From Priapulus caudatus (Eukaryota): 64,000 bases of DNA. The notes below the pieces were generated by a model. It searched no databases. It saw only the letters and a program-made list of their open reading frames with translations, and was not told the origin of the DNA. Each line of letters begins with the position of its first letter. The first letter of the stretch is position 1. The DNA is taken from contig NW_014577079.1 in the NCBI RefSeq assembly GCF_000485595.1, positions 180,826 to 244,825 of the forward strand, given 5' to 3'. Shown piece by piece: positions 1,707-48,450 of this stretch. The translations under genes were made by a program, and so were the position numbers.

Positions 1707-1872
1707 TCATTGACACATCCTGGGTAAATCTAGATCCCACCACTTCACAGAGAAGGGCTTGCGCTTGGTGTTAGTGCCACAGTGCACTTCGCCACCTTGC
1801 AGATGGTACGTGTACCAGTCGTCCAGGAAGTAACAGGACAGGCCAAGTGGCTCCAAAGCTGAGCGAACATAC
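1707..1872 (-). CDS. PADI: PADI coding exon 16 (catalytic Cys, stop)
   Basis: [54 protein letters not shown]. Confidence 0.96.
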
Positions 1873-4800
1873 CTATGCCATGAGAAATCTGCAGTTAACA
1901 TGTGTATGCACACGTGACATCTTGAGTAACCCTTATAAACGGGTTCGATTGTACCTTTGAGGACTATTACTGTGCCGCTACTGCCGCTGCTACTGTTATT
2001 GGTGCTGTTGCTACTACCGCCGCATAAAGCATCGTAAAAAAATCACATGCATATAGTACATACCTCTCAAATGCACACTCGCCATCAATTACTGGGCCAA
2101 ACGGTTTAGGAATGGCAAGGTTCTTCCCCAACACCAACATGTTGACCATATCTGAGAAAAAAACAGAGAGAGTTTTTCATTAGCGCATCTATGTCTCTGC
2201 CTATGTATATATGTTTCACATCTATGTATCCTTTCTTCCTGGACTCTTCCCGTAATGGTTATGCCATCAGAAAAACAAAGCTAAATGACAAAATGTTCAG
2301 CTGCTAAAACAGAATTATAGCTACTTTACTGTATTCCCCGTTGTAGCTTTAGATTTACTCCACACCTGGAAAATAGCTGGTAGCCTGAGGTTCAATCGTC
2401 TCGTTCTTGGGATCCAACTCGTTGATGAAGATTTCGGGAATATCTACAATGTCCCCTTCCTCTAGTCCAAGTTCCCTCTTCAAAATGTCTCGGTTGAAGT
2501 CAATATATGCCTGCAGGAGAATTGTTTTACACTTGAAATAGCACTATTGGGAAGTTTACTGCCCTCCTCTCTACGTATATCTACCTTTCATAATATTTCA
2601 TAGACACTAAAATATTATTAGTGAGCTCAGGTAAGCTTTATTCTATCAGCTGGTACAATCAAACCTGCATTAGCCACAACAAAAGATACCATTCAGCATT
2701 TTCTGAGTGAGTAATCTTTATATACAGGTTTGACTGTACACATTTCCATCACAGATTCAGGAAATAAACCATTACAAGTACCTGGAACTTTTTATTTTCA
2801 GCACGCAGTGTCTGGTTGGCTAGCAACTCTGAGACTGTTTCCTGCTTCATTTGCTTGCTGCGGCGCGATGCCCTCTTACCTTTAATAATCATAACAGTAT
2901 TACACCACACACGACCAAAAGAGCTTTCACACTTATAAGCCACTGTTAAATTAACAGCACCTCAATGATACAGAGTAATGCAAATTACTTATAACATACG
3001 TATGGAATATGTGATGGTTACTGATATTAGAAAAGTTTTTGCCGAAAATATGTTTTTTTTGACAGATTTGCTATATAAATATGACAATGCATATATACAC
3101 GCACACACACACATATACATGCACACAAACGCACACAAACATCTGTCTTTATCTATCTACCTTCAAACATAACTACATCACCATGTCCATCAGTCTGAAG
3201 CTTCTCCAAAATACCATAGGCCTTATTTGGGGATGCCAAACACAGTCGGAATCCCTAAAATCACAAGGTATATCAAAGTATATATCAGAAGTAGATAATT
3301 TAGGGAATCCCTATTATCTAGGGGTTCACTATTATCTACTTCTGATATATATATATATATGTGTATATATATACATAAAGGCATAAACATATCAATACAG
3401 ATATACTATTGACATGTTCATGATAAAGATATATCAAGTAGTGACAAGTAAGCATATAAACAAGCAATGAAAATATGAAACAACAAATCATAATGATAAT
3501 GATAATAATAGTAATAATAATAATTGAAATAATTGATAATACTACAATTTTGAGTCTGGTGAGAGTTCACATTTTCCTGCCAAACTTATTATCTAACAAA
3601 ACTAAAACAACAACTTTTCATTACCTGTCGACTACCAGGTACAGGCACGAAGGTCATAAACTCATCAATATGGCCAACATTTAGCCAATCAGAAAACAGC
3701 TCAATGACTGGCTGAACTTTCTGTGCATACAGGAAACGATTGACAACTCTCATCATGCGACGGCCCTTTAAAGAACTGAAATATGTTCAATTAGAAACAG
3801 CTGCAGTTAGGTTATACGGCTTACACACGCCGATGTATGGTATTGTTTAAAGTGAGAGCTTTGAAATAGATATATATATATAGCTAAATACAGTCAATAA
3901 TATATTTTTTGTCAAATAACCATGTCTTATTTTTCCTATTTTTGTTTGACAAGGTCTTTTTACCTGGTTAAGGCATTGCCAATGAGGATGCGTCCAAGAG
4001 GAAAATCCTTTCCATTTAGTTTAACAGGAGGGCTGACCTCTAGGTTTCCAAATGAATCCAGAGAGTTTGCTTTGTGTCTGCTTGTGTTCCGTGTTGCGTA
4101 ACCAAAGTCTGGACCCTATGAAAGGAGGTTTAAATGTACAGTGAATTTATATTTACCAATAGAAATGCACATAATCACAGATTTAATTTATCATTCTATA
4201 TTCAACTTACAAAACGTCTCTAGCTAACTACACGAATATACTTGGTTGGCATTACTTTCAATAGATGTTTTGCGTATATTCACATATGAATATCAACCAG
4301 CACATTTTTATCATTTAACAACATGGCATTTTTTAGAAAACATGTTAACAAAATTGTTAACATCATTACCAGGCACTGCCTTTGAGAGAATTTGCAGAGA
4401 CCTCGTTCCCTTGGCGAGTCCAGAACGACTGCCATCGGTTGGCGCTGGGGGACCTCTGTGTAGCCAAGTTCAATCTCATCCTATAAAAGCATCCAGCAAA
4501 GTATAACATGGCACATTTCCTCAATTACTGTTCGTAAGATCACTATAGCAGATGATTATACTCGTGCATGCACACGTTACGATACATGCACATACACACA
4601 CACACACCTATGCACACATGCACGCCATGGTGAAGCAGGATAAGCATTACCTATTTCCTTCTTTAGTGTACCAACAAACCTATATTAGTTGCCACCCCTA
4701 TAGGATGGATATCTGTATATAAAGGGCATTGTTGGCATTTCCTTTGAGTGACCTTTATATATTTTTCCCTGTAAACCTATTCTCTCTTGCATAGCAGCTG

Positions 4801-7800
4801 GCTTCACTAACTAATTCCTCAGTAAAATTCTAAACACCAACTTATAAGGGTGTTACAAGAAACAATTTATTTGTTGGATGAGTAGCGTTTGTCACATTTA
4901 ATTTTAGTTTGTTTATTACTGATGTGTACCTGCATCCACCGGTCTCCTCGGTTGCCATCCAAACCACAGACGACCAGTTGAATGCCGGACAAACCCTCCA
5001 CAAAGCCCCTCAACTTCTCAACAAAGCTGAGAGAATTTAAATATGCGTACACAAATTAGTGGAAGCACTATAACTGAACATTAACATTAATTACATGCAC
5101 ATGTAAGAACAGTAATAACACAACAATCAATTCATCATCACTATGATTTGCTTATTAGCTGATGTATCACAATACCAGCCATTTATACCAACATGGTACA
5201 TAACAACTATATCGCAACGTATATGAATGTGATCTTTACTTACTGTTTGTTATCCCGTGTATCACAAACATAAACAATTTCAGCTTCAAGAGTGTTTGGT
5301 GTCATAATCCATGGTGCAACACGGAACTGTACCATATCCTCATAAATGGGTACATCATCCTGTAAAATAAATAAATACAGCTGCAGAACTGTGAATTTTT
5401 AGCTAATATATCTATGTTTAGATAATATATTGTATAATTATTTACGTTGCAAGAGACATATTCTTGAAAACAAATCTTTGATAAAGCTTTTTTTTAATCA
5501 CTCCTGGTGATGAGTCATTTTTGTAAAGAATGAAAGTGTCAATGACACTGTAGCTCACCACAAAAAAGGACACAAATGAGTGAGTAAGAAGAAGTCAGTT
5601 TTAATTGAGCAACCATCGACGTACATTATAGAAACGATTGCCATCTGTATATCGCAATAATAATTTATAAACCAAAATGAATCACAATTTGTGACCGTAG
5701 ATGGCGCTATACCCGCTTTGTAGCGATGGCGCTTGAAATAAATAGGTTATGCTGGGTTCGACATGTTTTGTAAATCTTTACTCTAATATAGACGTTTTAT
5801 CGGCAGAGTGGACAGGAAATACCAATTTTGCATTAAAGATATTGTCAATGAAATCTTGTAAAACGAACCAGACGAGTGTGACACCACAGACTGTTTGTGT
5901 TTATATAATATGCTATATAATTGCCAAACCCTGCCTAATTTGCATAATTTTTTTTTAAATATCAAAACCCCTAGCCATTATTCATTCACATACCAAAAAT
6001 GAGCAAAATCCGTTGAACCTGAACTGACTAATGGCAATTCCCATTTTTGCCAAAAAATTGCCTTGGCTCGAAAGTACGTCGACTGGCGTGCTTCAAAATA
6101 GGACGTTCCATATGGGAGCATAGCAGTAACAACTAAACCCAATTTCAAACATGTGGGTCAAACGGTTCCTGAGTTATCGTTGACCGAAACCAAATGTTGA
6201 CGAACGGACGGACGAACGGACGGACGGACGGACGTACGACGGACGACGACCCATGGTAATAGCTCAACTTGACGATGTCAAGGTGAGCTAAAAATTAAGA
6301 TGCATGCATGAGATGCTTAGATTTAGTAGGATATATATATGGTTATACTGTACTAGGTTAAATTGAACCAAAGCAAGCAGAGTGAAGTTTGTACAGCTTT
6401 CCCTGGCCAATAAATCATAACAAATTGCATGTTAACACAATTCCTTTTTAATATTGTGTTAATTAGTAGTGTAACGTTATATTTATGTTAGTTATGTTTT
6501 ATTAGTGTAACAAGCCTTTGTTATAGCATACATGGCCACCCGTAGCTATAAATGACAAACCTTGAACAAGGCTAGATGAATATGCAGGAATCCTTCAAAA
6601 TAGCGATCAGGAAAACTCAAGCCTTCAACAGCAAACTCTACTTCGCCACCCATTCCTGGATAAAGTACTTCTGCGGCTCTCTGTCTCGGACCAATAACAT
6701 GCTTGTTCTTCATCATTGCTGAAATATTACAAGATTTATTATTATAGATTTAGTAAGGTAATTGTGCTTCCATAAATACAGATTTAAAATGTTTTAGCTG
6801 CTTTTGAACAAAACACACTTTTGAAACAATATAGTGCTGTCGTCACAAATTCTCCCACCTTCTGTATCCGCAGTGAGGTAAAACACTCCCACATAGTCTG
6901 CAAACTTGTCATCCACATACAGCTGCATGCTGTATCCTTCAGGTAGCTGTTCAGGTCCATCTGTGTTAACATAAATAAGTTAAATAACTACCCAACTGCT
7001 ACACCATGCAGTGCCATACACTGTAGTGTTTCACACCTACATATGCTTACTAGGAGAACAAAGGCAGGAAGCTGTGCAGCCATCCCACGCACACGTGAAC
7101 TTCTTGCACAGATGGATGACAAAAACACACACATAACTTGAGAGAATTACATATGAATGCAAGAGGAAATATCTATCCAGCACCTCAGTACTATCCATCA
7201 TGCATGCACGTACTAGACTCTCATTGCACTTAGCAATTACTCTTTTCGACAATAGTTAATGTGCCATGTGTTGTACATACACAGGAATTCACTAAAAAAC
7301 TGCCCTAGTAGTGCATTTATATAGACACACACACATATCATATACGCACACACACACACCCACACACACACAAAAGCGTGTGCACACTCACACGCACCAC
7401 ACACACATATGTATGTTTATATATCTGAGCAAACCTGTGCGCAGCATCATTCGGCCCATGTCTAGCAGGTCGAGAGGTCCGTTCACTAACTCGTCATCTG
7501 TGTCCCGCATTTCAGTCTCATTTGCTGTTTCGCAGTCACTATTCACCAGCAACACAGCGCCATATCCATCCCGTCCCCACTTCCACGAGTTCTGCAAGGA
7601 TGGTTTCCAATGAAAAGTATTATCGGAAACATCGTGCTCATACAACTAAATCGGGAAATTCTGTATTGATAAATAAAGAACAGCATATATTCATTGTCTA
7701 TATACGCATTGCATATATCTGTGCAAGTTGTGAAGTAACCAAAAAGATAACTTAAATGATAGAAATTGATAGTGTTACACATGCTTCATATATATGTTAC

Positions 7801-8855
7801 TTCCTTTTATATGAAGTATTTAGAACAAAATGAAAAACACAACTACCTGGGGCCCGTTGTCAGAAACAAAATTAGTCTTAACATTAGTCTTAACATTAAC
7901 TTTTTCTCTTAGACCGTTGACAGAAACGCTGCGGAGTTACGAGAATGAAAAATCGTAGCAGATTTCCTCATAACAATACGAAATAAAGTGATGTCGACGG
8001 TCTAGGAGAAATTGTTAATGTTAAGACTAATGTTAAGACTAATTCTGTTTCTGGCAACAGGCCCCAGGTTTTTATTTTATTTTCATTCTTCAATGAATAA
8101 TGCAGCTATCTGACTACAGCAGATAAAAATACAGAGTCAGACCTTGTGTGGACTGTTTTTCTCTACGATTCCATCTCTATCGGCATCTACATCCAGTGAA
8201 ATGTCTACACATGTGAGATGAAGATCAGCCTTCCCCAGATCTTCACCATCCACATTATAGAACAAAAATTCGACCTGTTCAAAACAATAACTACTTGTAT
8301 AATTTTTTCATTCTATTTTTTTATACAACTGCAGTTTTGCCAATCCACATGACAGCATTTAACCTCGTTGAGTCACACATAAAGCTTCTTGAGCAGCTAT
8401 TTCAATATGAATATGGACGTGTTATAAACTAATCCGGCCTAAATTAAGTTACATTTAGTAACCTGGCGACTCTCTATTCCCCGACATCCAATGAATTGTA
8501 CAGCTGGAAGCAGGAGATGTCAGCAAACGATTACGCACGCCTATGTTATTACGCTGTGACTCATATAGGCGTGGGTACTGGATCTGCCTTTTTCGCATGT
8601 TCACAATGTGCTTTGAGCCTACCATGCATTACGTGATCGCAATCAATCTACCGTATGTCGTTGCCTACCCGTTTGTCATTCTCCTGCCGGCTGACGGTGG
8701 CGACGTGCACGTACGCGACTACGACGGGCGCCACGTCCTCCTCGCTCCCATAGCCGCTAACGGACTCCTCACGGAACTTCACCGTGATGTCACCGTCTAG
8801 GTCACTCACGAGACCGTACCTCACCGCTCCTTCTGGCGCAACGCTGCAAGGAATT

Positions 8856-8896
<41 letters not shown>

Positions 8897-10039
8897 GGCT
8901 TTCCTGCTCTCTCCTTGATGTCAAAACTTTGCTGCTATCCATCATAATTTCTTAAGCCCATGTAGTACATATAGTACCAGACATGGTATCATCAGGAGTA
9001 AGATAATATAGATCCTATATTATCTTACTCCTGGTATCATGGTATCAGACGTCTAGTGAATCTGAATTTGAATCGGGTCTGAAATCTGAATCAGAAACTG
9101 GTTATAAAAACACACTTTTTTACAGGTTTAATATCAAAATCAATATCTTTGGATACCAGGTGACTCTTTAAAAACTTCTTAGTTTATAAATACCGAGTTT
9201 TACGTAGAGAATCTAGAGATTCTTGAATAATGATAAATAGGATAATTTACATACTCTTCATCTACACAGGTGCAGTGACTCTACATATATATGGGTTTCA
9301 ATAGCACATTTTCAGTATATATATATACGTGTGAGTGCTGCTGTACCACACCTATGTTTAAATTGTGCAGACCCTAAGTGTACCACTAGTGCACAGCAAT
9401 AAAATCCTTTGCCCAAATCATTAACAGTTATACAGCTCCCTATACACCCACACCAGGAGTAAATAAATCATAAACCACCCAGGCACACCCATGCAAACAT
9501 GGCCTGCAATTCATGAACGTTATAATTGAACAATGTATGAATATAATTTTAAATGTAGCCCACTCAAATGAAATCCCCTCGAGTTAGGGGTATGGCTTGT
9601 ATAGGTGCAATGAGCAGGAACTGCATTCATGACTAACTCTACACACTATACATAAACTTACATTAGCTAAGAGAAGAAAATTCAACTCTCAGTTTGTATT
9701 GCTTCAAAAAATATCAGTACGGGCACAATAAACATTCAGACAACATGCCACTTTGAGCAATAATTCTAAAATGAAAAATTTGTGAAAATATTTGTTCATT
9801 CAATAATTTCATAATCCTTGCAAAAGAAGCTGCAGTTAGGCCAGAGCTAACTTCAGCGATGCATACAGATTTAGGTAAATACACAATTAAAATACTTACC
9901 TCGAGATTCTTACACAGATTTCAGTTTTTACTATGACAACTGCAGATGCGACATCATTTAATATCAAATTGATTGTACGAACTCCTTCATTTCTACTGGC
10001 TCCAGGCCCTCTCTCAGATAAATAAGATGTTCCTTCCAT
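1707..10039 (-). CDS. PADI: Protein-arginine deiminase (PAD/PADI family, PADI2-like), 16 coding exons, ~693 aa
   Basis: Exons in transcript order: 10039-9900, 8843-8669, 8274-8143, 7591-7435, 6960-6859, 6718-6561, 5359-5244, 5026-4930, 4480-4370, 4115-3964, 3775-3625, 3254-3161, 2879-2782, 2510-2366, 2151-2064, 1872-1707. All introns GT-AG, phases compatible, total 2082 nt ending in TGA. Motifs: [118 protein letters not shown]. Confidence 0.96.
2064..2151 (-). CDS. PADI: PADI coding exon 15
   Basis: [28 protein letters not shown]. Confidence 0.95.
2366..2510 (-). CDS. PADI: PADI coding exon 14
   Basis: [48 protein letters not shown]. Confidence 0.94.
2782..2879 (-). CDS. PADI: PADI coding exon 13
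   Basis: [32 protein letters not shown]; aag acceptor, so 5' boundary less certain. Confidence 0.85.
3161..3254 (-). CDS. PADI: PADI coding exon 12
   Basis: [31 protein letters not shown]. Confidence 0.93.
3286..3344. mobile_element. Palindromic micro-MITE (CAGAAGTA...TACTTCTG)
   Basis: Inverted ends cagaagtagataat / attatctacttctg in a TA-rich context; same end type as 8993, 29664, 50681, 54737. Confidence 0.6.
3625..3775 (-). CDS. PADI: PADI coding exon 11 (catalytic His/Asp)
   Basis: [50 protein letters not shown]. Confidence 0.95.
3964..4115 (-). CDS. PADI: PADI coding exon 10
   Basis: [50 protein letters not shown]. Confidence 0.95.
4370..4480 (-). CDS. PADI: PADI coding exon 9 (catalytic Asp)
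   Basis: [37 protein letters not shown]. Confidence 0.93.
4930..5026 (-). CDS. PADI: PADI coding exon 8
   Basis: [32 protein letters not shown]. Confidence 0.92.
5244..5359 (-). CDS. PADI: PADI coding exon 7
   Basis: [38 protein letters not shown]. Confidence 0.93.
5533..6294 (-). mobile_element. HINE/DINE-1-like non-autonomous Helentron, family A
   Basis: On the minus strand starts TTTTTAGCTCACCTTGAC, has a (GTCC)n microsatellite and ends GTGAGCTA + hairpin AGTGTCATTGACACT; homologous to 25069-26348. Confidence 0.75.
6561..6718 (-). CDS. PADI: PADI coding exon 6
   Basis: [52 protein letters not shown]. Confidence 0.92.
6859..6960 (-). CDS. PADI: PADI coding exon 5
   Basis: [33 protein letters not shown]; phase 1/1. 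Confidence 0.88.
7435..7591 (-). CDS. PADI: PADI coding exon 4
   Basis: [52 protein letters not shown]; an alternative in-frame acceptor exists at 7645. Confidence 0.9.
7846..8068. mobile_element. MITE with long terminal inverted repeats (possibly PIF/Harbinger-derived)
   Basis: cctggggcccgttgtcagaaacaaaattagtcttaacattagtcttaacattaac ... gttaatgttaagactaatgttaagactaattctgtttctggcaacaggccccagg. Confidence 0.8.
8143..8274 (-). CDS. PADI: PADI coding exon 3
   Basis: [44 protein letters not shown]. Confidence 0.92.
8669..8843 (-). CDS. PADI: PADI coding exon 2
   Basis: [17 protein letters not shown]...SRQENDKR; ttgcag acceptor, gtaggc donor, phases fit neighbours. Confidence 0.85.
8993..9033. 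mobile_element. 41-bp palindromic micro-MITE with 7-bp TSD
   Basis: caggagtaagataatata-gatcc-tatattatcttactcctg flanked on both sides by gtatcat. Confidence 0.75.
9900..10039 (-). CDS. PADI: PADI coding exon 1 (putative ATG)
   Basis: [46 protein letters not shown]; donor AG|gtaagt; an acceptor at 10055 implies an upstream exon, so the start codon is not certain. Confidence 0.75.
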
Positions 10040-10399
10040 TGGTGAAAGAGTAACCCTACATGACAAAGGTAGAGAAGAACATTAAAATGACAATAAACCA
10101 ACTAAGCAGGGTATTAGTTAGTAATTGGCTATATCTTACCCTTTTCTCTATCTTCTGCCTGTGATATATGCCTATGGTATAGAAGGCAGAGCAGACCCAG
10201 GCATGCAAGAAAGGAGAAGAATACAAGAAGAAGAGCAGAATATATAAGAGGTGAATAACTAGAGGGGAGAAGGTAGAAAAGGTCAGGAATTGTGAGAAGG
10301 TAGAGGGTGCAAAAACTAATAACAATAAAATCTTTGATCAACGGGCATTGGGGTCTTTGGGATATGGATAAATAGCGACCTGAACCCCACTCTACAGTG

Positions 10400-10930
10400 T
10401 ACCAGAGCAGCGAACAAAGCGATGGGAGTACTGAGATCGATCAAGAAAACATTCAAGTAGGTACGTAGATAAAAGGTGTTTCCTTATCTTGTACAAGACG
10501 TTCATCAGACCCCACCTAGAGTACTGTGTGCAAGCCTGGTCACCCTACTATAAGAAAGATATGGACCCGTTAGAAAAAGTGCATAGGAGGGCAACCAAGC
10601 TAGTCCACTCTATACGTAATCTGGAATACGAGAGGAGACTGGAAATCCTAGGTCTATATTCACTGAAACAGAGGAGAGTGAGGGGAGACCTGATCGAAAC
10701 TTACAAAATTTTAACAGACAAAGAAAACATTAATTAATAGCAACCAATTTTTCACACCGGCAACCGGAACCACCAGGGGTAATCCCCTGAAACTATTCAA
10801 AAATAGATCCAGGCTGCAATTGCGACAGCACTTCTTCAGCCAAAGAGTGGTGAATGCATGGAGCGCACTGCCAACATTTGTTGTCGAGGCCAAAAGACGG
10901 TCAACTGCTTTAAAAACAAACTAGACAAGT
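10400..10930 (+). mobile_element. CR1-group LINE ORF2 3' fragment (decayed)
   Basis: YKTFIRPHLEYCVQAWSPYYKKD..LEKVHRRATKLV...RRVRGDLIETYKI and downstream FFSQRVVNAW, typical LINE RT C-terminal region; frameshifts and stops. Confidence 0.85.
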
Positions 10931-10934
10931 TCAA

Positions 10935-11205
10935 TGGTCCAAAAACTGGCAAATGTCTTTCAATCCAAAAATGTGCACCAGCCTCACAATATCAAGGAAA
11001 CAAACCCAAATAAACCAGACCTATACCATCATGGGAACCAAGCTCAAAAAGGAGGAACATCAACTCTACCTCGGCGTGGAGCTCAGTGATGACCTCTCTT
11101 GGTCTACCAACATCAGCCGGTCGAAAGGAAAAGCAACCCGGGCCCTAAATTTCATCAGCAGAAACCTTGTAGGATGCCCAGAACCTGTCAAAGAGATGGC
11201 ATACA
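10935..11205 (+). mobile_element. Second LINE RT fragment
   Basis: WQMSFNPKMC...LYLGVELSDDLSW...KATRALNFISRNL..CPEPVKEMAYK, similar to the region after YLGV in the LINE at 26895-28541. Confidence 0.75.
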
Positions 11206-11307
11206 AAGCAGGCCCGTAGCCAGGGGGTTCAGGGGGTTCGCACAACCCCCCCCCAAGCAAATAAAAAAAGAAAGAATTTCACCTCAGGTATGCACTTATT
11301 TTAATGT

Positions 11308-12915
11308 AACAAGTGCCGCGGAGTGACAGCGCTCATCTCACGTCTACTGCGGTGACTCTGTGGTGGAGTGGTGGGATTCTAGTAAACCCGGTTAGTCCCA
11401 AATGTGTTCACATACGCGCCGAAACAGTGAAAGGCACAGGGATGCAGGGTTCTGCCCACGGTGGGCGGCGGTGGGCGGGTGTGCCCGGCACTCGCGGTTG
11501 CCGCCTGGCACTATAAATCTCCGCCCGGCACTAATTTTTTATTAAAAAAAAAAAGGGTCTGATATATGGGCTTTTTATTGCTCAGAATGCAGGAAATTGA
11601 GTTTCAGACTATCCAAAATCAAAGATTTTCAGGGGGGCATGCCCCCGGACCCCCCTAGATTGGCTTCGCGCCTACGGCGCTTGCATCTTGCGACTGGATG
11701 CGCCCGGCACTAAAAAATCCTGGGCAGAACCCTGGGGATGGTATCAGGAACCTTCTCGAAGGAATGTTCGTTGAGATCGTTATGAAAGTTGCCACGAGAT
11801 GGCGCGTACGTTTAAGTGTCTTAAGATTAAAGATGGAAGCTCTCATCGTACATAGTAGCAACAACTATTTGCAGCACAGAGTAGGCGGTAAGCAATCATC
11901 CATTTACCTACGCAAGCGCCTCACAGGCTGAAATAGAGAGCTGCCAGGCCTTAACTGAAGTTAATGCAGACAAAACTACACGAGTGACTATCACCCACCA
12001 CGATGCACTGGCGGAGGGTGGGCGACTCGGCAGTGTCGCACAAGTTACGGATGCGTACCGGACTGGACAGTTACCAGGAATGCGCCATGAGAACATTTTA
12101 GCGAGCTTTGAAAGCATAAACCTTCTGTCGAGACCGAAAGTTAGCTTTGTGAAATTTCCAACGTGTGAGCATGGCTGAGCGCTCATACGCTCCGCACGGC
12201 GCATACATGTATAGCATTCTACTAGCAAACCCGCGCAGTCAAACGTGCTTTGCTAACAGTAAAGCAAATCCATGTGTTAGACCCTCGCGTGAAGGTTGAG
12301 TCAGGAGAAGCTTGATCCCAGTTGGACTACTTCGCCATGTCAAGCGGAAGTACATTTCGATCGGTCCTCGTTCGAATAAAGCCATACAAAATAGGTAGGT
12401 TCACCGCTGAAACAAAAAAGTTTTTCAATCGCTCCGTCAGACCATGGTCCTCAGAAAATGGTCGTAAGAATGCTAGCCCTGCCTGCGCCCAATTACCTTT
12501 AACCCTGCCTGACCTTCCAATTTCAGGCCACTAGTGATGGGCCTTTTCCTACCATGGTGCGTAGTACAGCCGACTATCCCGAGCCCCCTAGGTCCAAAGC
12601 CGCTTTAGATTTGTGCGTGCAATTCGTGACCATTTCCTCTCTATACCTTAAGTTTCGAGTTAGGGAATGTTCCCCTTCTTTTACACCCTCTTGACCTTTG
12701 ACCCCCAGCTTACGACATCCCAACTCATTTTCGGATTACCCCCCACCACACCGACTATGAATCGTACGTCGAGCGGGTCTTCAGGACTTTGTGCCCAACA
12801 ACTGTCTGCACGGAACGCGATGGACGCACGCCGGACGACGGCGCCGACTGTCACGCGTACCTCGTGCGATCTACAAATTAAGCCTGCATACCTCGACCTA
12901 TGTCAATTGAGCCTC
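11308..12915 (-). mobile_element. HINE/DINE-1-like element, family B (degenerate, with nested MITE)
   Basis: Reverse complement of 11308-11345 matches the 3' end of 18454-19437 and 48451-48985 (tgagcgctgtcactc.gcggcacttg); 12640-12740 matches the family-B internal ggggtcaaaggtcaa segment. Confidence 0.6.
11445..11734. mobile_element. MITE with CAGGGTTCTGCCCA TIR and 6-bp TSD (hAT-like)
   Basis: TIRs cagggttctgccca / tgggcagaaccctg, flanked on both sides by gggatg. Confidence 0.8.
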
Positions 12916-14080: not shown

Positions 14081-15073
14081 CTGGAACACGTACATTACTG
14101 CCTACATTTAAAAATGTTCCCTGCAAATCTCTCACGTGCACCTGGAGTCTTTCCCGCACTCCCTGGACGTTTATTCCTTATACGGACTGTCCAGTATAGA
14201 AGTAGAAGTAGAACTAGAAGACTTACATTGGACAGATATGGGTATTATAAAAGACCACACCCAAACCCAACACACCTAAACCTAACCCCAAACCTAAACA
14301 ATTGGGGGGGCAAACCCCAACCCAAAAAAAAAGAACCAATGGAAAATGGAATTTAAAAAAGAAGAAAGAATGGGGGAACAGGACATCTAGACTAGACAAG
14401 GCCAACAACTAATACTGAATACCAAATCATCTAGGATAAATCCTGAACCCCGGCCGTACCACCAGACACCATACTGGTCTCTACATGCAGTGGCAGCATG
14501 CACAGAAGCCGGTTAACACGGCGATACTTATAAATGATAAGATTGCTATAACATTACCGCAACGTCAAATCTGGAGTAAATCGATCACCGAAGCGAAGGC
14601 CAACACTAAGGAGAACTTAGGAGAAACACTAAGGAGAAACTTCAGTGAGAGTTTTGTAACCACATGCTGCACGTACCTTCCTTCACTCTGAAGCAGGACA
14701 CCGGTAATGCCTGTTCAGCAGCAGTTTCTTAGAACTACTCAAGCAGGAAATTTTGCTTGCTCAGACGCTTCATATGATTCCGTTCAGGTTTCTAGAGCAT
14801 TTGATTACGTGCAGCGGCTTTTATCATATTATTCGCCACTTATGATGCGTGGGCCTGTTTGTATATGTTTGTGCAGCCAAGCGGCTCATAGGTGGCGGTG
14901 TTTTCCACACTACGTAGATGGGTTACTAGTCTTGTTACCTTGTTCTCTTACATCAGTGAAGAGTCGGTTCCCCAGTCTTCTCGTCTTCATCGATTTAGAT
15001 TGATGGATTGACTCATTGAGAACAATAAATTTACCGATACAGATATAACTAGAAAGGTTTTTGATTTACTCAC

Positions 15074-15139
15074 CTAGAGTTCTGGAAGGAGACACCTATC
15101 CGCGATGCCTGGATTACTTCAGCTTGAATAAACGTAACA
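15074..15139 (-). other. Candidate upstream exon of PADI
   Basis: tatgcag acceptor, consensus AG|gtgagt donor, 66 nt, open in the frame that continues into the 10055 acceptor; no transcript evidence. Confidence 0.35.
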
Positions 15140-15566
15140 CTGCATATAATACTACTAATAGTAATAGTAATAGTAATGATACTGGTGATTTTTATCATGA
15201 TAATGCACTAAAGTTTTAGTATAAACTGTAAAATTGGCTTCCGCTTTCCAGTAACTTTCTTGTCTCGATGTGACACGCTGTCACTGTAGTGTGTAGTTGA
15301 CCGAATCCAGAAGAGTTTAGCCTAATGGCTACTAGAGCAAGCGGCCTGGGCCTGTAGGTGTGCCTTACCGAACGTGTAATCGAACGTGTTACCGAACGCA
15401 GTACGCGAGCCGAATACTTGGCTGTTGCAGTGACAGTGACACTTTTAGGAGTTGTCTGGGGTCGTCGGTACGCGGAAGCTAGGTTCCTATTAGGCTTTAC
15501 TGCGTCGTGTACCAAAACCTGTCGAAAAACTGGTTGTAATTTGTCGTCAAGTGACGCACGGGCCAC

Positions 15567-16267
15567 GAAGGGTCGTTGTCGTATCAGGTACTACATATAT
15601 GTACCCGAGGTAGTTTTAGGTTGTTTAGTATTACTATTATGTTTATATTTTTATATGACTATGAGGTATGTTTAGGGTTAGGGTTAGAGTACACTTCTGT
15701 AGTACAAGTCGGGTACACTTTGTCAGTTTGTGTATACATGTATAGATACAATAATGTCACCCAAACACAGGATAGCTAGGGTTACAACGCGTCCCTATAT
15801 CCTTTTGTGTGGAGGAACCCCTGAGTGAATCACTCAGGGCGGTTTGCTAGTGCGTTTTCAGAGACTAGAACTTCCAAACTGGGTTTATTCTCAACACGAA
15901 CCTATAGCTTTCTCCGCTATCTTGGAACTTACTATGTATCACAATACTCTGTATTAAACTAATATAACCTGTTACAAAAATTCGAAGTGACGAGCGGCGA
16001 ATATACTGAGCGCCATTTCGGATTACCAATGCGCATAGCGATCGGCAAACGCAGCACCCTCCGATTGGTCGGTGAATCCGCTCTTCAAAACGAAGTAAGA
16101 GGCTTTCTCAGAGGGTCTATGAAAACGCACCAGCAAACCGCCATGAGTGATTCACTCAGGGGTTCCTCCACACAAAAGGATAGGGACGCGTTGTAACCCT
16201 ATCCTGTGTTTGGGTTACATTATTGTATCTAATACATGTAGTACCTGATTCGACAATGACCCCTTCA
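15567..16267. mobile_element. Inverted-repeat (foldback/MITE) element
   Basis: ~15743-15838 is the reverse complement of ~16143-16231 (tagatacaataatgt...tccttttgtgtggaggaacccctgagtgaatcactca); outer arms 15567-15600 and 16232-16267 also pair. A miniature with the same ends lies at 16328-16400. Confidence 0.75.
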
Positions 16268-16622
16268 GCTCAAGTGACACTGAAGGGCCTAGTTCATTCA
16301 TCCAGAGTTGGAGGCCTCTGAACCCTGGATACAATAATGTAACCCACCAGCAGTAGGGTTACAGAGAACCCTACTCTTGTTGGGTTACATTATTGTATCT
16401 ACACTGAACCCCAGAATTAGAATGTTATGTTGACATATGTGATCAGTTCATGCAGCTGTAATAAGGGAATTAGCAGATACGTTAGGATAACGAAATTTAA
16501 TGTATCATTTTTAACAGGCTAAATAGAAGGTTATAAGTTCTTGTATGAGTTGAATAGTTTTTAGGGTTATTGTGAAGTGGTGAGACTGCTGCTATCCGCT
16601 GGACTTCTGAAAGTTACTGCTA

Positions 16623-16720
16623 ATTCATGTGCAGATCATGCAGATATACATGACATTAATCTACATAATATATATTATGTAGATTAATGTCATGTATATC
16701 TGCATGATCTGCACATGAAT
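16623..16720. repeat. Perfect 98-bp palindrome
   Basis: attcatgtgcagatcatgcagatatacatgacattaatctacataata-ta-tattatgtagattaatgtcatgtatatctgcatgatctgcacatgaat. Confidence 0.9.
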
Positions 16721-17652
16721 ATATGACACTACCTGTGCACTAACTTACATATTCAACTATGAAGATAAATAGTTGTAATGATCTATACACACATATTGTA
16801 AAAATATTATAAGTACCCGGGTATAAAATAAAATAAAAAAATATATATATTAAAGCAATAATAAGAACTCGTGAATATTATATGTAGACCATATTTTGCT
16901 GCTGATAAGTTACTGAGTACTTTATTGTTGGATATCGATAGTCGTGATTGACTATGTTGTACCCAAACTTGGAATCTTGGCACAAACTAGGAATTTCAGC
17001 GCATTCGCAGTTTGGGCAACCAATTTTCTGATTGGGCAAAACCTGTTACATATGTTTATTAACTATTAAATATTAGTAAACAAATTAATAGTGACCACCA
17101 GCAGGTTCCCGTTCTGCAGACACAATGCGTGACACCCTAGACCCTAGTCACTATCTTGGTAGCATTGAAGTGTGCCATCGACGGACAAAATACATGGTGT
17201 GTGTATCATGATTTTACATTGACAGTTGTTGGCCTCCAGCTCAAGATATAGTTACCTGACCAATTAATTTTCCAGGGCACAATTTACTAGATTGGACAGA
17301 TACCAGCAATTGATGTGCAACTTGTATTACAGCTCTATATATTCGTTCCGCCACAAGGCCAATTAGGGTATATGTAATTGTATGTCTGTGAGTCGGACTT
17401 GAACCTGCGGGTTAGGGGGTTGAACCGGGAACCGCTGGCAAAACGGCGCTAATGTCGCGCACTGAAACATTATTTTACTTCCTAGTATGGATGTGATTAC
17501 CAGACTTGCAAAATTTGTTATTCGATATAAAGAAATGAATTACGATGTGTATTAATTGTTTCTGGCATTGTGATATGAATTAAGCTTTTTTATTTTACAG
17601 TTCCATGCAAATACTACCAAGCATAAATTTTCTTACACTATAACTGTAAACG

Positions 17653-25002: not shown

Positions 25003-25068
25003 TATCATGATAAATGTGCCATGTCACTATCCTCAGCGTACATCAACACAGGTTATGTATGCGGATTA

Positions 25069-26348
25069 CTTTTTAGCTCGCCTTGACATTGTCAAGATGA
25101 GCTATTGCCATAGGGCGTTGTCCGTCGTACGTCCGTCCATCCGTCCGTCCGTCAACATTTGGCTACGGTCAACGATAACTTGAGAACCGTTTGATCCATA
25201 TGTTTCAAATTGCATACAGTTGTTACTCCTTTGGGAGAGATGTGAACGTCCTATTTTGGAGCACGCCAGTTGACCTACTTTCGAGCCACGCCCACTTTTT
25301 GGCAAAAATGGAAATGGCCATAAGTCAGTTCACGTTCAACGGATTTTGCTCATTTTTGGTATGTGAATGAGTAAGGACTGGCCCTAAAACATATTACAGG
25401 GCTTTTGATATTTTTTGTAAATTATGTAAATTAGGTAGATTTTGGCAATTTTACTATGCATTTCAGTGTTTGCCTACGGTCAACGATAACTCAGGAACCG
25501 TTTGACCCACATGTTTCCAATTGCATACAGTTGTTACTCCTATGGGAGAGATTTGAACATCCTATTTTGGCGCACGCTAGTCGACCTACTTTCGAGCCAC
25601 GCCCACTTTTTGGCAAAAATGGAAATGGTAATAAGTCAGTTTAGGTTCAACGGATTTTGCTCATTTTTTGTATGTGAATGAATAAGGACTGGCCCCAAAA
25701 CATATCACACAGGTTTTGATATTTTTTTTAAATTATGCAAATTATAGGTAGATTTTGGCAATTTCACTATGCATTTCAGTGTCTGCCTACAGTCAACGAT
25801 AACTCAAGAACCGTTTGACCCACATGTTTCAAATTGCATACAGTTGTTACTCCTATGGGAGAGATTTGAACGTTCTATTTTGAAGCACGCTAGTCAACCT
25901 ACTTTCGAGCCACGCCCACCTTTTGGCAAAAATGAAAATGGCCATCTAGATTCATTCGATTTTGTTAAATTTACCTACCTACCTACCTACCTACCTACCT
26001 ACCTACCTAATCATACCTAAGTGTAATATTGTGTTTTAGATTCTTCGTTGCAGTAATTTGACTGGAATATTTTATTGCTTTATTTGCACAATAATCAAAA
26101 ACCAAAATGGCGATCATTTAGGCGTAGCGCCATCTCTCGCCCAGATTTCAGACTTTCAGATCAGAAACATTTATTTTATCATCAAAACTAACCCTGAAAC
26201 AAAGCAGTGAAATTTCTATTAGTATAAAACAGGGAATAAGGACATTGATCACATTTTGGTTCGTCATAAATGAAACAGTTACCAAATTTTAAATATCATC
26301 TCCCTCTTCTATCACACCCAAGGTGAGCTATAGTGTCATTGACACTTT
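25069..26348 (+). mobile_element. HINE/DINE-1-like element, family A, with ~310-bp internal tandem repeats
   Basis: tttttagctcgccttgac start, (GTCC)n, about 2.5 copies of an internal unit (starts ~25163, ~25474, ~25787), end aggtgagcta + tagtgtcattgacact hairpin + T-run. Confidence 0.8.
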
Positions 26349-26894: not shown

Positions 26895-28541
26895 AGGGCC
26901 TCAAGCATGGGTAAGGCTCCAGGACCTGACAATATGCGTCCTCGTGTACTGAAGGAATTATCGAAAGAAATTGCGCCAATCCTGACTATGATTTTCCAAG
27001 CCTCCTACAACTCGGGTGAAGTCCCGCAAGACTGGCGAAATGCAAATGTCGCACCAATTTTTAAAAAAGGTCAGAGGTACCTGGCTGAAAACTATCGACC
27101 AGTGTCACTGACGTGCATCAGCTGCAAAGTCATGGAGCACATTGTGACATCTCACATCATGTCTCATGCCGATAAACACAACATTCTCAACCCGCTTCAA
27201 CATGGTTTCCGGAAGGGTGTCTCCTGCGAAACTCAGCTTATTGACTTTGTGGACGATGTGTCCAAAAGCATGGAAGCTGGAAAGCAGGTCGACTGTGTAA
27301 TAATGGACTTTTCAAAAGCTTTTGACAAGGTAAACCACAGCCTACTCGTTCACAAGTTAAATCACTATGGCATCCGTGGTAAAACCAACACCTGGATTAG
27401 TTCGTTCCTGTCAGATCGAATGCAGACAGTCGTCGTCGACGGAGAGAGATCTGACCCTGTAAATGTAGAATCAGGAGTCCCGCAAGGTTCAGTGCTTGGA
27501 CCTTGCCTGTTCCTGTTCTACATAAATGACATCCCGGAAGATACACAAGCAACCGTTCGACTTTTTGCAGATGACACATTGATTCATATAGCTCTGACTA
27601 AACCACAAGATTCACAAATACTGCAGAATGACTTGGACCAACTAGCAGTCTGGGAAGACAAGTGGATGATGAAGTTCCACCAAGACAAATGTCTGGTCCT
27701 GACCATCACCAGAAAACTCCAACCAACCTGTTACCCATATGCTCTACGCGGACATACCTTAGACGTGGCCACATCAGCCAAGTACCTGGGTGTCACACTA
27801 ACATCAGACCTTCGATGACACAACCACATCAGCTCAATATGTAGTAAAGCAAATGGAACCCTATCATTCCTGAGAAGGAACCTAAAGATTTCCTGAATGG
27901 AAGTTAAGTCACTTGCCTATACCTCATTGGTTATGCCCACGGTGGAGTACGCCAGCACGGTATGGGATCCATATCAGGCGCAGGACTGCCAACATCTTGA
28001 AATGGTCCAAAGACGAGCAGCGAGATACGTCTCAAACCGCCACCACAACAGGTCGAGTGTTACTGACATGCTTGAATTTAAACACTCAACTGGCCGACGC
28101 TGGAGTCAAGACGAAGGGTTGCCCGTTTGGCTATGATGTACATGCAAGCTCGTCAACGGCATGGTCAACTTGGATACCAACAACCGTCTGATACCACCTA
28201 CTCGAAGCACCAGGAACATGTCAGAGCACTCTTTTCAAATCCCATCCTGCTGTAGATGTACGTGACTACAGGAAATTACGGCTCCTTCTTTCCCAGGTCT
28301 ATTACAGAGTGGAACGCCTTACCGACTGAAGTGGTGACAGCCGAAAATCTATGTTCCTTTAAGTCTCTGATTACTGCCTAAACGACATCAGGGCAGTTTT
28401 TTAAGTAAAATTTGCTTTTTTTGTGTGTTTTTCTTTAGAAAATCAAGGAAAGGAAAATTTTATTTTAGTCTCAACTAGCGCCTCCCGTTGGCATAATCAT
28501 CAGTATGTTGATGGTGGCCAATATAGCGTAGAAGTAGAAGT
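26895..28541 (+). mobile_element. 5'-truncated LINE (CR1/L2-group) reverse transcriptase, decayed
   Basis: KAPGPD, WRNANVAPIFKKG, NYRPVSLT, QHGFR, DFSKAFD, GVPQGSVLGP, FADD, KYLGV; in-frame stops at 27816 and beyond; 3' tail gtagaagtagaagta. Confidence 0.93.
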
Positions 28542-34766: not shown

Positions 34767-35285
34767 AGGACAATTGAAGTCAAATTTTATAACTTCTGTA
34801 ACGTTTTTATACATAGAAATACATTCAATAACGTATTCCATTTCAAATCCGGCGCCCGCAGTTCAAATCCGCAGTAAGAAACACATGAATATTAGTCTAG
34901 GTCATGTGACGTCACAGCACCCTGTTGAAACACGCCATTATGTAAACATAGTGCGTGTGGTGTATAAGATGAAGATAGAAAGCGATAATTTCAATGATTC
35001 TAGTGATTACTCAGATGATGATGATATTTATAGTGATTTACCAGTTGGATATAGGTTTGAGCATGAATATACACAAGAAGTGGAGGAGAATTGTCTGAAA
35101 AAGCAACGGGAAGAGTCGGCACACACTTCTCGAGAATCAGAAGTCACAATTCATGGCGGAATGGAAGCTTCGGTACCAGATAGGACTGTAGACAAATACT
35201 GGTGTTCTTGTAGTGTTTGTGAATTAATGAGTACGGCACCTGAATGTATATGCTGCCATGAGAATGAGAAGACCAGGGTTATTGC
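34767..35285 (+). mobile_element. Probable Kolobok-type transposon fragment encoding a P2X7-C-terminal-like Cys-rich domain
   Basis: Starts TTAA|AGGACA; ORF has an acidic leader, YRFEHEY and WCSCSVCELMSTAPECICCHE, the pattern of the P2RX7 C-terminal/nanor-like domain; similarity lost before the gap at 35441. Confidence 0.6.
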
Positions 35286-36959
35286 CCGGCCCCCCCACTC
35301 CGAGGTCGGAAAGACCGCATGCGCGTTCCCAAAATCTCCGGTAAAGGGGTATTTTTCGCGCGACAAAATCCGGCCCAAGAATTGTAAACAAGAGCCGCAG
35401 AGCGTCTGGGCTCATCTGAGGTCTGTTGCTACGATTATAAANNNNNNNNNNGCGTGCGCCGGCCTAAGCATTAGGCGCCCGGGTCCATAGCTGCCAGCGC
35501 CGCATACTGTCGTAGGACGTTCCCGCGGTCGCGTGCGCCTTGCCGCGGAACTGCACGCAAGATCTGCGCTCAGCACTTCGGGTCAACACCTCCTTTCGGC
35601 AACGCTTCTCTAGTATCCCGTCTCATCTGGATGTTACTAACAATTACACTACTATCAGCACTAACTATTGAATAATTTGTAGTTTCAACCGGTCATACAA
35701 TGGTACATTCTCATAAGGCGATACAAACATTTCTTATATCTAATTTCAACCGAATTCTTTTAGCGAAAATCATACTCCTCTGCCTCTAATGTTTCTACCT
35801 TTTTATAGGGATAATAAAAGCCTTTGACCCTTTTGTCTGTGCATGTGTCTGTAAGAATATCAGTCTGCTACGAATATACGCGGATTATGATGTATGCCTA
35901 AATACAGCCTAATACAGAGATACTTGAATGATGTGAAACGCCTCCTAGCCTAGTTTCTATGCAGAAACTCTGCTCTGTCAGCTTTGCCTATTTCGTACGG
36001 CTCGGTGTGAGGAAATCGATGCAGTTTATTACATCACAGCAGACAAACTGTCGCAAACTGTCAAAATTGTGGCGCTCAAAGACGGCGTGGAAGATGTAGC
36101 GACGTAATTGCATTTACTTACGAAACTAATCGCATTACTGACGCGTGACGGGAGTATCAGGCGTACTGGCGTAGTGATCGTATGGCAGGCTAGCGATTCT
36201 GCAGGTAAAGAATTTCTCGGTCTTTTTCGTTTGCAAATGGTCCGCGAGATAGGATTCATAGAGAAATTTAGAAAAATTTGACCGTACAAACAGTGTATTC
36301 ATGAGGCAACGCAGAACTTGGTAATGAATACAAGTTTGCGCAAATCCAACGTATTTTCAAGTTTCGTCGAAGGATACGACTTTGCAATACTGTATAGAGT
36401 AAAAAAGGTTAAATGAAGAGAAAGAGAAGAAATTACTTGGCAGGTTGTCGTGCCTTTATGTAAGCCTTTTACCTTTAAAATGGCCTTTAAAATTGTTTTT
36501 GTGAGGAGGGACCGACGTACAAAATCCCCAGGAAAGTCTTGGTTACAAAACGATTGCTGCCAGATGTCTTCCCCAATACTGGATCCTTCTATGCAAATTT
36601 AGGAATGAATGTGCTTGTTTTCTATCAGCAGGGTACGATAGTGGGGTATTATAGTGGGGTATTATTACTATTACTCTGGTAGATGCATTCATACTCTTGT
36701 TCCCGGTGGCAACGTTTGATGCTTGTTTACCATGTATTGATTCGATTTCTAGCTAATGGCATATATATTAGTTAAATAAGAGCTTTACTTAGCGTAAAGC
36801 GGCTGCTGCAGAACTCATCCCAGCTCACGCACTCTGGATAAGTAGTCTACCCAGTACCCACAACAGATAAAACTACATCGAGATGGCTTCATTTGAATAT
36901 ATTTTAATAGCAGACGCTTACAATGATGCATGAGCACCTGTCTGGTTGTTATATATATG

Positions 36960-36990: not shown

Positions 36991-37644
36991 GCATTGCATC
37001 CCATTCATACGATTCCATGCGTTGTGGTGTGTCACACCCTCGTGTGTACAGCAGACGAGATCAGAGCGCACAGATGTGACCGCGTTCTGTTGTTCTCGTC
37101 GCGCCGGTTTCCACCAACTAAAGTAAATAGCTGCTCGGGAGGAAATGCGTTGATGCGAGCGCCGACGGCTGCCAGATGACAGCAATAGGAAGCGAGTGCG
37201 GCGGTGCCATCCATAGTCGAGCAGGCGTTGATGGCTTCAGTGTGAGAGAAGAATCACACATAGTATAGGGGCCGCACAGTCGACTGATTTCATTTACGGC
37301 CTCGTGCGCGCGCGCGCACGTCCGCACTCACACGTGCTATGCACCCTCTCACCAACCGATCAACATCCCCGCCTCCTCACGCCCTGCGCTATATCCCTGT
37401 TATATATGTATGTATAATTCAGCTTTATCGCGGTTAGTAATGGGTACGCGCCTCCTCTATTGTGAGTGATTTATATAGATCACTGTAAAGGCGGGTTATC
37501 GAGAGCGAACATCGGCGCCTGCTCTATACTGCGCGACTTCTCTGTCTGTCAACTGATATGATAACGACCGAGAGCAGCTTTCCGCAATCTTGGGCCGAGT
37601 GCTGCGGTGGGTGGGTGGGTGGCTTCGCTGCGCGCGTATCACAT

Positions 37645-37647
37645 GAG

Positions 37648-37711
<64 letters not shown>

Positions 37712-38115
37712 CTCTCTGCTCTCTCTCTCTCTCTCTCTCTCCTCTCTCTGCTCTGCTCTCGCTCTCTCTCTCTCCTCTCGCTACTCTCCTCTCTCTCTCT
37801 TCTCTCTCTCCGCTGTTCATCTCTTCTTCTCTCGTCTTCTTCTCTCCTCTCTCTTTCTCTCCTCTCTCTCTCTCTCCTCTCCTCTTTCTCTCCTTGCTCT
37901 CTCTCTCTCTCTCTTTCTCTCGCTCTCTCTCTTCATTCTCGTTTCTCGTGTCTCTCCCTTGCGTTTTTCTTTCTCTCTCTCTCTCTCTCTCAACCTCTCT
38001 CTCTCTTCTCTCTCTCTCTTCTCCCTGCTCTCTGCTCTCTCTCTCTCTCTCTCTGCTCTCTCTTTCCGTTCTCTGTTTCTCTTTTTCTCTCTCTCTCTTC
38101 TCTCTCTCTCTCTCT

Positions 38116-38149
<34 letters not shown>

Positions 38150-38640
38150 ATCTCTCCTACTCTCTCTCCTCTCTCTCTCTCCCCACCATCTCTCTCTATC
38201 TCTCCCCACCCTCTCTCTCTTCTAACTCTGACCCCATCTCTTTTTCTCCCTCTGTCTTTGCCCGTCCTTCCTCCCCCTTCCTCTCTTCATCCCTCGTTCC
38301 GTCCGTCCGTCCGTCCGTCCGTCCGTCCGTCCGTCCGTCCGTCCGTCCGTCCGTCCGTCCGTCCGTCCTTCCCTCCCTCACCCCTTCCCCATCCCTCTCT
38401 GAGCCACCCTCTCTGCCCTGTTTCTCTGCTTCGCCTCTGTTTCTCTCTTTTTTTCTCTCTCTCTCTCTCTCTCTCTCTCGCGCTCTCTTTCTCTCTTTCA
38501 TTCTCTGTTGCTCTTTCTCTCTCCCTTGCATTTTCTCTTTCTCTATCTCTCTCTCCTTCCCCCCCCTCTCTCTCTCTCTTTCTCTTTCTCTTTCTCTTTC
38601 TCTCTCTCTCTGTTTCTCTCTCTCTCTCTCTCTCTCTATC
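37645..38640. repeat. ~1-kb (CT)n-rich compound microsatellite with a (CCGT)n block
   Basis: Direct inspection. Confidence 0.95.
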
Positions 38641-38923: not shown

Positions 38924-39141
38924 GGCTGAAAGGGGTGGTAGGATATGTTTACTAGGCACTTCTAATTTTAACATATATTTTACGATATATTAAAGAATGA
39001 TGCAAAAACCCTAAAAAGTGCCCTAACCCTAACCCTAACCCTAACCCTAACCCTAACCCTAACCCTGACCCTAATTTAAATTTAAAATATATGTTAAAAT
39101 TAGAAGTGCCTAGTAAACATATCCTACCACCCCTTTCAGCC
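38924..39141. mobile_element. MITE with ~58-bp TIRs enclosing (CCCTAA)n
   Basis: ggctgaaaggggtggtaggatatgtttactaggcacttctaattttaacatatatttt and its reverse complement around about 8 ccctaa units. Confidence 0.8.
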
Positions 39142-48383: not shown

Positions 48384-48420
<37 letters not shown>

Positions 48421-48450
48421 TGCTGTTGAACTTTTGCAGTATATTTTCTA

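Follow-up and report, generated by a model that had tools for sequence, protein, structure and literature searches.

An intact, spliced protein-arginine deiminase gene of Priapulus caudatus with intron positions in common with chordate PADI models

Human PADs are head-to-tail homodimers. In PAD2 the catalytic residues are given as D351, H471, D473 and C647 (PMC11564549). According to passages of Cummings et al. (PMC8826395), a cyanobacterial relative of the three-domain type is active in vitro, and the fungal and actinobacterial PADIs are without the calcium-switch residue D389. Those authors, whose study concerns transfer of the gene from cyanobacteria, included the PADI of Priapulus in their trees, calcium-site analysis and dating, and in the same passages left open whether transfer occurred at the base of deuterostomes or of Bilateria, since they had no protostome other than Priapulus. 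Isoform X1 of the Priapulus protein (XP_014670176) was already a table row in Salzberg 2017 (PMC5422933). The gene is already known, a published protostome PADI that forms a textbook exception in the debate on horizontal transfer of PADI, and its discovery is no news. In the passages of these two papers, with the supplement, we found no splice support, treatment of the 5′ exons or intron comparison for it. Among the parts of the literature searched, neither intron positions shared with chordates nor an intact PADI in Owenia nor an assay of the Priapulus enzyme is reported, and those of PMC11016909 and PMC7943724 hold nothing further on invertebrate PADIs.

We analysed a window of 64,000 nucleotides, within which 16 exons on the minus strand (10039-1707), GT-AG at every junction, give 2082 nt when joined, comprising 693 codons and one stop. 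This reproduces the uninterrupted reading frame of about 693 amino acids put forward in the original prediction. The model is 100% identical over 693 residues to RefSeq XP_014670183.1 (isoform X2), the PADI of Priapulus caudatus; RefSeq names this entry and XP_014670176.1 protein-arginine deiminase type-2-like, isoforms X2 and X1. The identity to the Priapulus record rules out the lophotrochozoan host that had been suggested, placing the sequence in the Ecdysozoa (Scalidophora). The idea that the gene would reveal citrullination in a lineage where it is little described also falls, since this same gene is the protostome PADI of Salzberg 2017 and Cummings et al.; with a PADI already known from the taxon, novelty is lost. 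What stands is that an invertebrate carries an intact, intron-bearing PADI of three domains.

All features of the gene lie on the minus strand. The start codon (ATG at 10039) is in an exon at 9900-10057 that has an acceptor at 10057 and a donor in phase 2, and is matched by a transcript contig on 9900-10057. Coding exon 2 (8669-8843), within PAD_N, ends in phase 0 after codon 105, and the joint of intron 2 is found in RNA. Coding exon 3 (8143-8274, 44 codons) encodes the predicted Ca6 loop DVDADRDG, coding exon 4 (7435-7591) lies in PAD_M and contains predicted Ca3-5 ligands, and after coding exon 5 (6859-6960) PAD_M ends in coding exon 6 (6561-6718). The catalytic domain starts in coding exon 7 (5244-5359). 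Coding exon 8 (4930-5026) ends on WMQ, intron 8 separating Q359 from the catalytic D360 of coding exon 9 (4370-4480). Coding exon 10 (3964-4115) carries D399, the equivalent of the PAD2 calcium-switch residue D389, and coding exon 11 (3625-3775) the catalytic H482 and D484. Coding exons 12 (3161-3254), 13 (2782-2879), 14 (2366-2510) and 15 (2064-2151) lead to coding exon 16 (1707-1872), with the nucleophile C670 and the stop at 1709-1707. The 3′ UTR covers at least 1000-1706, on the basis of a contig on 1000-1866 and of read depth, 1000 being the edge examined. Coding exons 3 to 7 and 9 to 16 have the support of both model and RNA, and coding exon 8 that of the model. In the RNA runs 13 of the 15 predicted introns occur at exactly the modelled lengths, while introns 1 and 8, the latter forming the 3′ joint of coding exon 8, are absent among the rows listed. 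Coverage of the coding-exon bins is thin, for the most part <10 per strand.

At the 5′ end the transcript contig ceases to match at 10057, where an acceptor lies 18 nt upstream of the start codon. The exon with the ATG is therefore probably preceded by at least one other, and the gene is likely to comprise 17 exons or more. A candidate non-coding first exon (14677-14843) is matched by a contig at 14676-14843 and has a consensus donor and in-frame stops; no joint from the donor at 14677 to 10057 was seen in the RNA data. RefSeq isoform X1 has an extra first coding exon at 15073-15199, adding 47 residues with a hydrophobic N-terminus, from which the gene might also make a secreted or membrane-anchored enzyme that citrullinates in the calcium-rich secretory pathway or extracellularly. 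An ATG, an uninterrupted frame and, at 15073, a consensus donor are all present in this RefSeq-annotated exon, its peak 15-residue hydropathy is 2.25, and a hydrophobic N-terminus is also present in the amphioxus paralogue P0411. Yet no 15073-10057 joint is listed in four RNA runs, and on the opposite strand it is overlapped by the neighbouring gene's first exon, the joint of which is seen (8 reads). Moreover the hydrophobic run derives partly from a short ATTACT repeat, and the short form reaches 2.01 on the same hydropathy scale in an ordinary beta-strand. We consider such a product unlikely; the N-terminus of the 693-aa form appears to be without a signal peptide. Two exons of the neighbouring gene match EF-hand families in Pfam, and an Atlas search with a third exon gave nothing above 0.78; we tentatively take the gene to be EFCAB7, as in the original prediction. 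Runs of TTAGGG occur at four places in the window.

How do the introns compare with those of chordates? Splice sites were deduced from differences between chordate protein models, not from chordate DNA, and the 14 chordate pairs for the breakpoint comparison were chosen after the list had been inspected. On this basis introns 1, 2, 3, 8, 9, 10 and 12 fall on the exact codon of chordate PADI isoform breakpoints in gap-free alignment, and two further introns, one of them intron 11, match in gappy alignment. The coincidence has P=4e-5 against a uniform null, and P=0.12 with the null restricted to gap-prone (loop) positions. Coding exon 3 has both its ends in common with an exon skipped in amphioxus, as coding exon 9 has with one that a lizard PADI2 model skips; two of the ends of these matched exons lie outside gap-prone positions. 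In human PADI4, too, introns presumably occur where Priapulus introns 10 and 13 lie. No exact chordate match for introns 4, 7, 14 and 15 was found in the protein-model comparison, intron 5 is 2 codons from a chordate site, and intron 13 is outside the sampled positions. The site of the human PADI3 splice variant c.832-2A>G (PMC7014782), the one usable human splice coordinate in the literature searched, is placed in the linker of Priapulus intron 6, in equal phase, and the intron of mouse Padi2 exon 7 (PMC10542451), which falls in a gappy loop 4-5 codons away from Priapulus intron 5, was left uncounted.

Phylogenetic trees, which had been proposed with the original prediction, place the Priapulus PADI inside an animal clade with those of Owenia, amphioxus and vertebrates, supported at 100/99 (LG+G, 41 rows) and 99/98 (mixture model, 28 rows). 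Inside the clade Priapulus stands beside the vertebrates at 92-93% bootstrap in both best trees, and the branching there is unsettled. Environmental bacteria might be nearer to the animals than the cyanobacteria are; the order is poorly supported under LG+G (37/20), and the mixture model (80/72) speaks weakly against that proximity. In the annelid Owenia fusiformis there is an intact PADI (CAH1782438.1), which falls in the animal clade (100/99). A 2025 paper calls padi4 absent from O. fusiformis and states that annelids and all other invertebrates are without padi4; the Owenia gene conflicts with this, at least if no PADI whatever is meant. A lophotrochozoan PADI does exist, in a genome other than the present one.

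Taken together, the shared introns and the Owenia PADI favour a single transfer that predates the last common ancestor of bilaterians, and with shared introns and a second protostome phylum the date of transfer becomes directly testable. We think it probable that Priapulus keeps the exon layout of the earliest PADI of animals, and that the introns in common with chordates, seven to nine at the least, together with Owenia, date a single bacteria-to-animal transfer and the gain of introns to before the ancestor of ecdysozoans, spiralians and deuterostomes. Citrullination would then be ancestral in the Bilateria and lost in flies, nematodes and most other protostomes; if so, it persists, expressed, in slowly evolving marine worms. 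The very patchy occurrence of PADI in protostomes (insects 0/142, annelids 0/2; Table 1 of Cummings et al., PMC8826395) would also suit a separate gain, with the Priapulus gene acquired directly from bacteria or by later animal-to-animal transfer rather than by bilaterian inheritance. An AU test leaves a tree holding Priapulus with the cyanobacteria unrejected (p=0.089), both best trees set Priapulus beside the vertebrates and not beside Owenia, and the loop-restricted intron null is non-significant. However, an intron-free bacterial donor would not yield two whole exons that match chordate skipped exons at both ends, the animal clade is supported at 99-100%, and constraint trees holding the protostomes together (p=0.43) or the chordates together (p=0.28) are unrejected. 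A genomic copy passed between animals would retain its introns, but a second event would be required for Owenia. A separate gain is thus improbable, and a single early transfer is our preferred reading.

The protein has the three-domain layout that had been predicted, with Pfam matches above cut-off in the order PF08526 PAD_N (35.4 bits), PF08527 PAD_M (153.3 bits) and PF03068 PAD (517.2 bits). All four expected catalytic residues are present, in the motifs WMQDE (D360), GHIDE (H482 and D484) and VHCGTN (C670). Among 34 catalytic, substrate and calcium positions, 32 are the same as in primate PADI2, the exceptions being V129I and D374E. The equivalents of PAD2 D123, D125, E131, D169, D177, Q350 and E354 are all retained, and the switch residue D399 is present. 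An AlphaFold model made from a 78-row alignment (mean pLDDT 88.9, pTM 0.89) has the predicted PAD fold of two Ig-like domains and an alpha/beta propeller. Its best Foldseek match is human PAD2 (TM 0.87), and the 50 matches listed are all human PAD1-4.

By analogy with human PAD2, calcium would bind at sites of both the middle and the catalytic domain, and D399 would transmit the switch that shifts C670 into the active site. There the guanidinium group would be held by D360 and D484 and attacked by C670, with H482 as acid/base; ammonia would depart, and water would free the peptidyl-citrulline. The 693-aa form may target arginine-rich proteins in the cytosol or nucleus upon a rise in calcium. 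Taken whole, the best explanation is very probably an intact, spliced PADI gene of animal PADI ancestry that encodes a predicted calcium-activated deiminase. An expressed invertebrate PADI provides a route to asking what citrullination did before the vertebrates. A non-catalytic scaffold that keeps the fold, like mammalian PADI6, is highly improbable: an amphioxus paralogue without the D351 equivalent indicates that inactive copies do appear in invertebrates, but here none of the four catalytic residues and none of the tested calcium ligands has been lost, and the score to PAD2 is 605 bits against about 420 bits to PAD6. Spliced RNA, the frame without in-frame stops and the EF-hand neighbour rule out a pseudogene and, as originally argued, bacterial contamination.

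Compared with known systems, the Priapulus protein is like human PAD2 (PDB 4N20 series) in its three domains, catalytic tetrad and calcium ligands (605 bits, model TM 0.87), but has about 17 extra N-terminal residues, predicted to be disordered. Identity to primate PADI2 is 47%, with D374 replaced by E. Vertebrate PADI models have several intron positions in common with Priapulus, although no vertebrate match was seen for Priapulus introns 4, 14 and 15; the chordate sites missing from Priapulus are vertebrate ones near codons 128, 190 and 611 (Priapulus numbering) and, at codon 316, a splice signature of amphioxus. The two-domain fungal and actinobacterial PADIs are without PAD_N and have Gly at the D389 position, whereas Priapulus has PAD_N and Asp and is excluded from that type. 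Cyanobacterial PADIs with three domains, clade Ai in Cummings et al., are 41-46% identical, with the catalytic residues and most of the calcium ones retained. Both trees gather them in a clade of their own (100/100), sister to the animals at 80/72 in the mixture model; unlike the Priapulus gene they are intron-free, and no Pfam PAD_N call is among those listed for them. The closest relatives with a single domain set are the Branchiostoma PADIs, at 50-52% identity, which belong to a family of at least three amphioxus paralogues, one of them that without the D351 equivalent, and which share splice positions at Priapulus introns 1, 2, 3 and 10.

A complete, intron-containing gene for a protein-arginine deiminase lies on the minus strand of the window. 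The coding part of Priapulus PADI comprises 16 exons, running from position 10039 down to 1707, and all 15 introns (140-1201 nt) have GT...AG ends. The spliced coding sequence of 2082 nt encodes 693 residues and a single stop, bearing out the intact 16-exon GT-AG gene and ORF of about 693 residues of the original prediction. Taken singly, 12 of the 16 exons match Pfam PAD_M or PAD at E ≤ 0.1, and the matches follow the order of the profile, an agreement far beyond chance. Exon 11 is a 100% match to one database protein, from Priapulus caudatus and 693 aa long, with the title 'PREDICTED' protein-arginine deiminase type-2-like isoform X2, and the full model is identical to isoform X2 (XP_014670183.1); isoform X1 is XP_014670176.1. 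The host had been guessed to be a lophotrochozoan, and this is wrong, since Priapulus is an ecdysozoan. Nor is the presence of a PADI gene in this animal new: the PADI row in a table of Salzberg 2017 (PMC5422933) carries the accession XP_014670176, and Priapulus is the sole protostome with PADI in the account of Cummings et al. (PMC8826395), whose trees include it. The gene has thus been published before, and its interest rests on the comparison of introns and on the copy in Owenia.

The RNA evidence comes from four of 15 listed datasets: raw reads of three RNA runs, and one set of contigs. Among the joints listed, 13/15 introns are seen at exactly the modelled length, supporting the proposed junctions; introns 1 and 8 have no joint among those listed for these four datasets, where weaker joints may be unlisted. 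RNA depth across the coding exons is low, and the 3′ UTR extends at least to position 1000. High-copy repeats within the introns (5529-6294, 7845-8045, 11309-11930 and 12400-12744) attract hundreds of RNA reads originating elsewhere in the genome; further copies lie at 25066-25949 and 48537-48860.

A transcript contig aligns to 9900-10057, and its six leading letters do not match the adjoining intron. This fits a splice acceptor at 10057, and thus the ATG-bearing exon is probably the second of the gene. Reverse transcriptase-like remnants, smaller than the LINE fragment at 26907-27815, lie upstream of it at about 10435-11219. There are two candidate first exons on the minus strand, one at 14676-14843 from a transcript contig, with a consensus donor at its 3′ end, and the RefSeq X1 exon at 15199-15073; no joint from either to PADI was seen in the four RNA datasets. 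The plus-strand neighbour, which we take to be EFCAB7, spans from about 15100-15133 to about 25030 and has EF-hand Pfam matches. It is spliced from 15133 to 17601 (8 reads in one RNA run), so that the two genes are arranged head to head. The first exon of the neighbour overlaps the X1 exon (15073-15199, minus strand) in antisense, which suggests that the two genes share a promoter.

Elsewhere in the window, a tandem duplication of about 3 kb (48090-50963 and 51071-54021) flanks an N gap at 50964-50988; the copies are 85% alike with many small indels, and the duplication is likely an assembly or gap-filling artefact. A LINE reverse transcriptase fragment lies at 26907-27815 on the plus strand (RVT_1, E=1.5e-35). 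A cysteine-rich open frame at 34969-35436 (plus strand), which runs into an N gap and has a weak P2RX7_C match under the cut-off (E=0.0056), is possibly transposon-derived. There are also a diverged minisatellite (1-600), a long CT-rich tract (37640-38640) and an interstitial (CCCTAA)7 run (39021-39062).

The protein retains the key residues of the family. At 34 catalytic, substrate-binding and calcium positions, 32 are the same in Priapulus PADI and a primate PADI2 (P0238, 665 aa), the two changes being V129I and D374E. Positions given no source here are presumably known catalytic, substrate or calcium sites. The numbering of the catalytic tetrad is taken from PMC11564549, that of D125, E131 and D389 from Cummings et al. 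(PMC8826395), and that of D123, D169, D177, Q350 and E354 from PDB titles. An AlphaFold model (78-row alignment) has a mean pLDDT of 88.9, with residues 1-17 disordered, and a TM of 0.87 against human PAD2. The mechanism proposed for Priapulus PADI would be that of human PAD2, carried over by established knowledge.

Trees were built from rows hand-chosen out of 80, with distant representatives as outgroup; none of these rows was recognised as coming from Saccoglossus, a fungus or an actinobacterium. The larger has 41 rows (12 animal, 8 cyanobacterial and 21 other). Priapulus PADI falls with those of Owenia, amphioxus and vertebrates in a single animal clade, both in this tree (support 100/99) and in a 28-row tree built with a mixture model (99/98), where cyanobacteria are the sister of the animals with weak support (80/72). 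Within the clade, Priapulus and the vertebrates are placed side by side (bootstrap 92-93%, not starred). A protostome pair (p=0.43), a chordate clade (p=0.28) and the grouping of Priapulus with cyanobacteria (p=0.089) are all left standing by AU tests, and thus the trees alone do not fix the history. Environmental bacterial PADIs (P0119, P0408, P0409, P0412-P0414; L033:2742-4718) are as like Priapulus PADI as are the cyanobacterial proteins (47% identity for P0119, 41-46% for cyanobacteria), and where they branch with respect to animals and cyanobacteria is weakly supported.

The intron positions provide a second line of comparison. Chordate splice sites were inferred from differences between near-identical protein models rather than from chordate gene structures, using 390 of 406 proteins (13 non-chordate rows and three outside 250-899 aa were excluded, and a few rows without a name were kept). 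Comparison of 1696 pairs of at least 90% identity, with models merely starting at a later Met removed, yielded 30 clusters with 45 breakpoints in all. For eight of the 15 Priapulus introns the nearest breakpoint is no more than one codon away, where a uniform null expects 1.8 (P=4e-5); with the null limited to gap-prone positions, 6/13 are observed against 3.6 expected (P=0.12). On pairwise re-mapping of 14 pairs, selected afterwards, introns 1, 2, 3, 8, 9, 10 and 12 fall on the exact codon of a breakpoint in gap-free alignment, and intron 11 does so in a gappy one. In the strongest cases, an amphioxus isoform lacks exactly the counterpart of exon 3, a lizard model exactly that of exon 9, and bird insertions at introns 2 and 3 have Val as their first residue and Gln as their last, which marks a retained phase-0 intron. 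The phase-0 intron of human PADI3 between E277 and D278, placed by the variant c.832-2A>G (PMC7014782), lies in the gappy linker that also holds intron 6. Intron 5 is two codons from a breakpoint, no breakpoint of the protein-model comparison coincides exactly with introns 4, 7, 14 or 15, and intron 13 is outside the positions sampled; chordate sites near codons 128, 190, 316 and 611 lack a Priapulus counterpart. The word 'intron' does not occur in the main text and supplement file of Cummings et al. (PMC8826395), nor in PMC11016909.

Most likely the gene was transferred once from bacteria and then gained introns, all before the split of ecdysozoans, spiralians and deuterostomes, with many losses afterwards. 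Cummings et al. (PMC8826395) leave the date undecided between the deuterostome root and the bilaterian root.

How widely is PADI found among invertebrates? Among the best 120 of 1982 matches to the full-length protein, the named relatives are amphioxus, vertebrates and one annelid, Owenia fusiformis. The Owenia protein (P0080, CAH1782438.1; 740 aa, 45% identity), encoded on a 31.9 Mb sequence, has all three domains, the full catalytic tetrad and 31/34 key positions; it is an intact annelid PADI and a member of the animal clade. Used as query, it found no named invertebrate besides amphioxus and Priapulus among the best 120 of 1447 matches. In Cummings et al. (PMC8826395) 0/2 annelids have PADI, and Owenia is not named in one of their supplementary files. 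A 2025 annelid paper (PMC12153100) states that padi4 is missing from its annelids, 'similarly to all other invertebrates', which may refer to the PADI4 paralogue only. We found no paper on Owenia PADI in the literature, most subscription journals and the supplements of PMC12153100 being outside the scope of the search.

A third amphioxus paralogue (P0411, XP_078571531.1, from an amphioxus hybrid) has a hydrophobic N-terminal stretch, with Asn at the catalytic D351 and Ser at D370, and on its sequence is possibly a membrane-anchored, inactive copy. N-terminal extensions beginning Met-Gly are found on amphioxus P0016 and P0017 (MGKC) and on the Owenia protein, a start that is a possible lipid-anchor signal. 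Vertebrate PADI2 and the short form of Priapulus PADI are without this feature.
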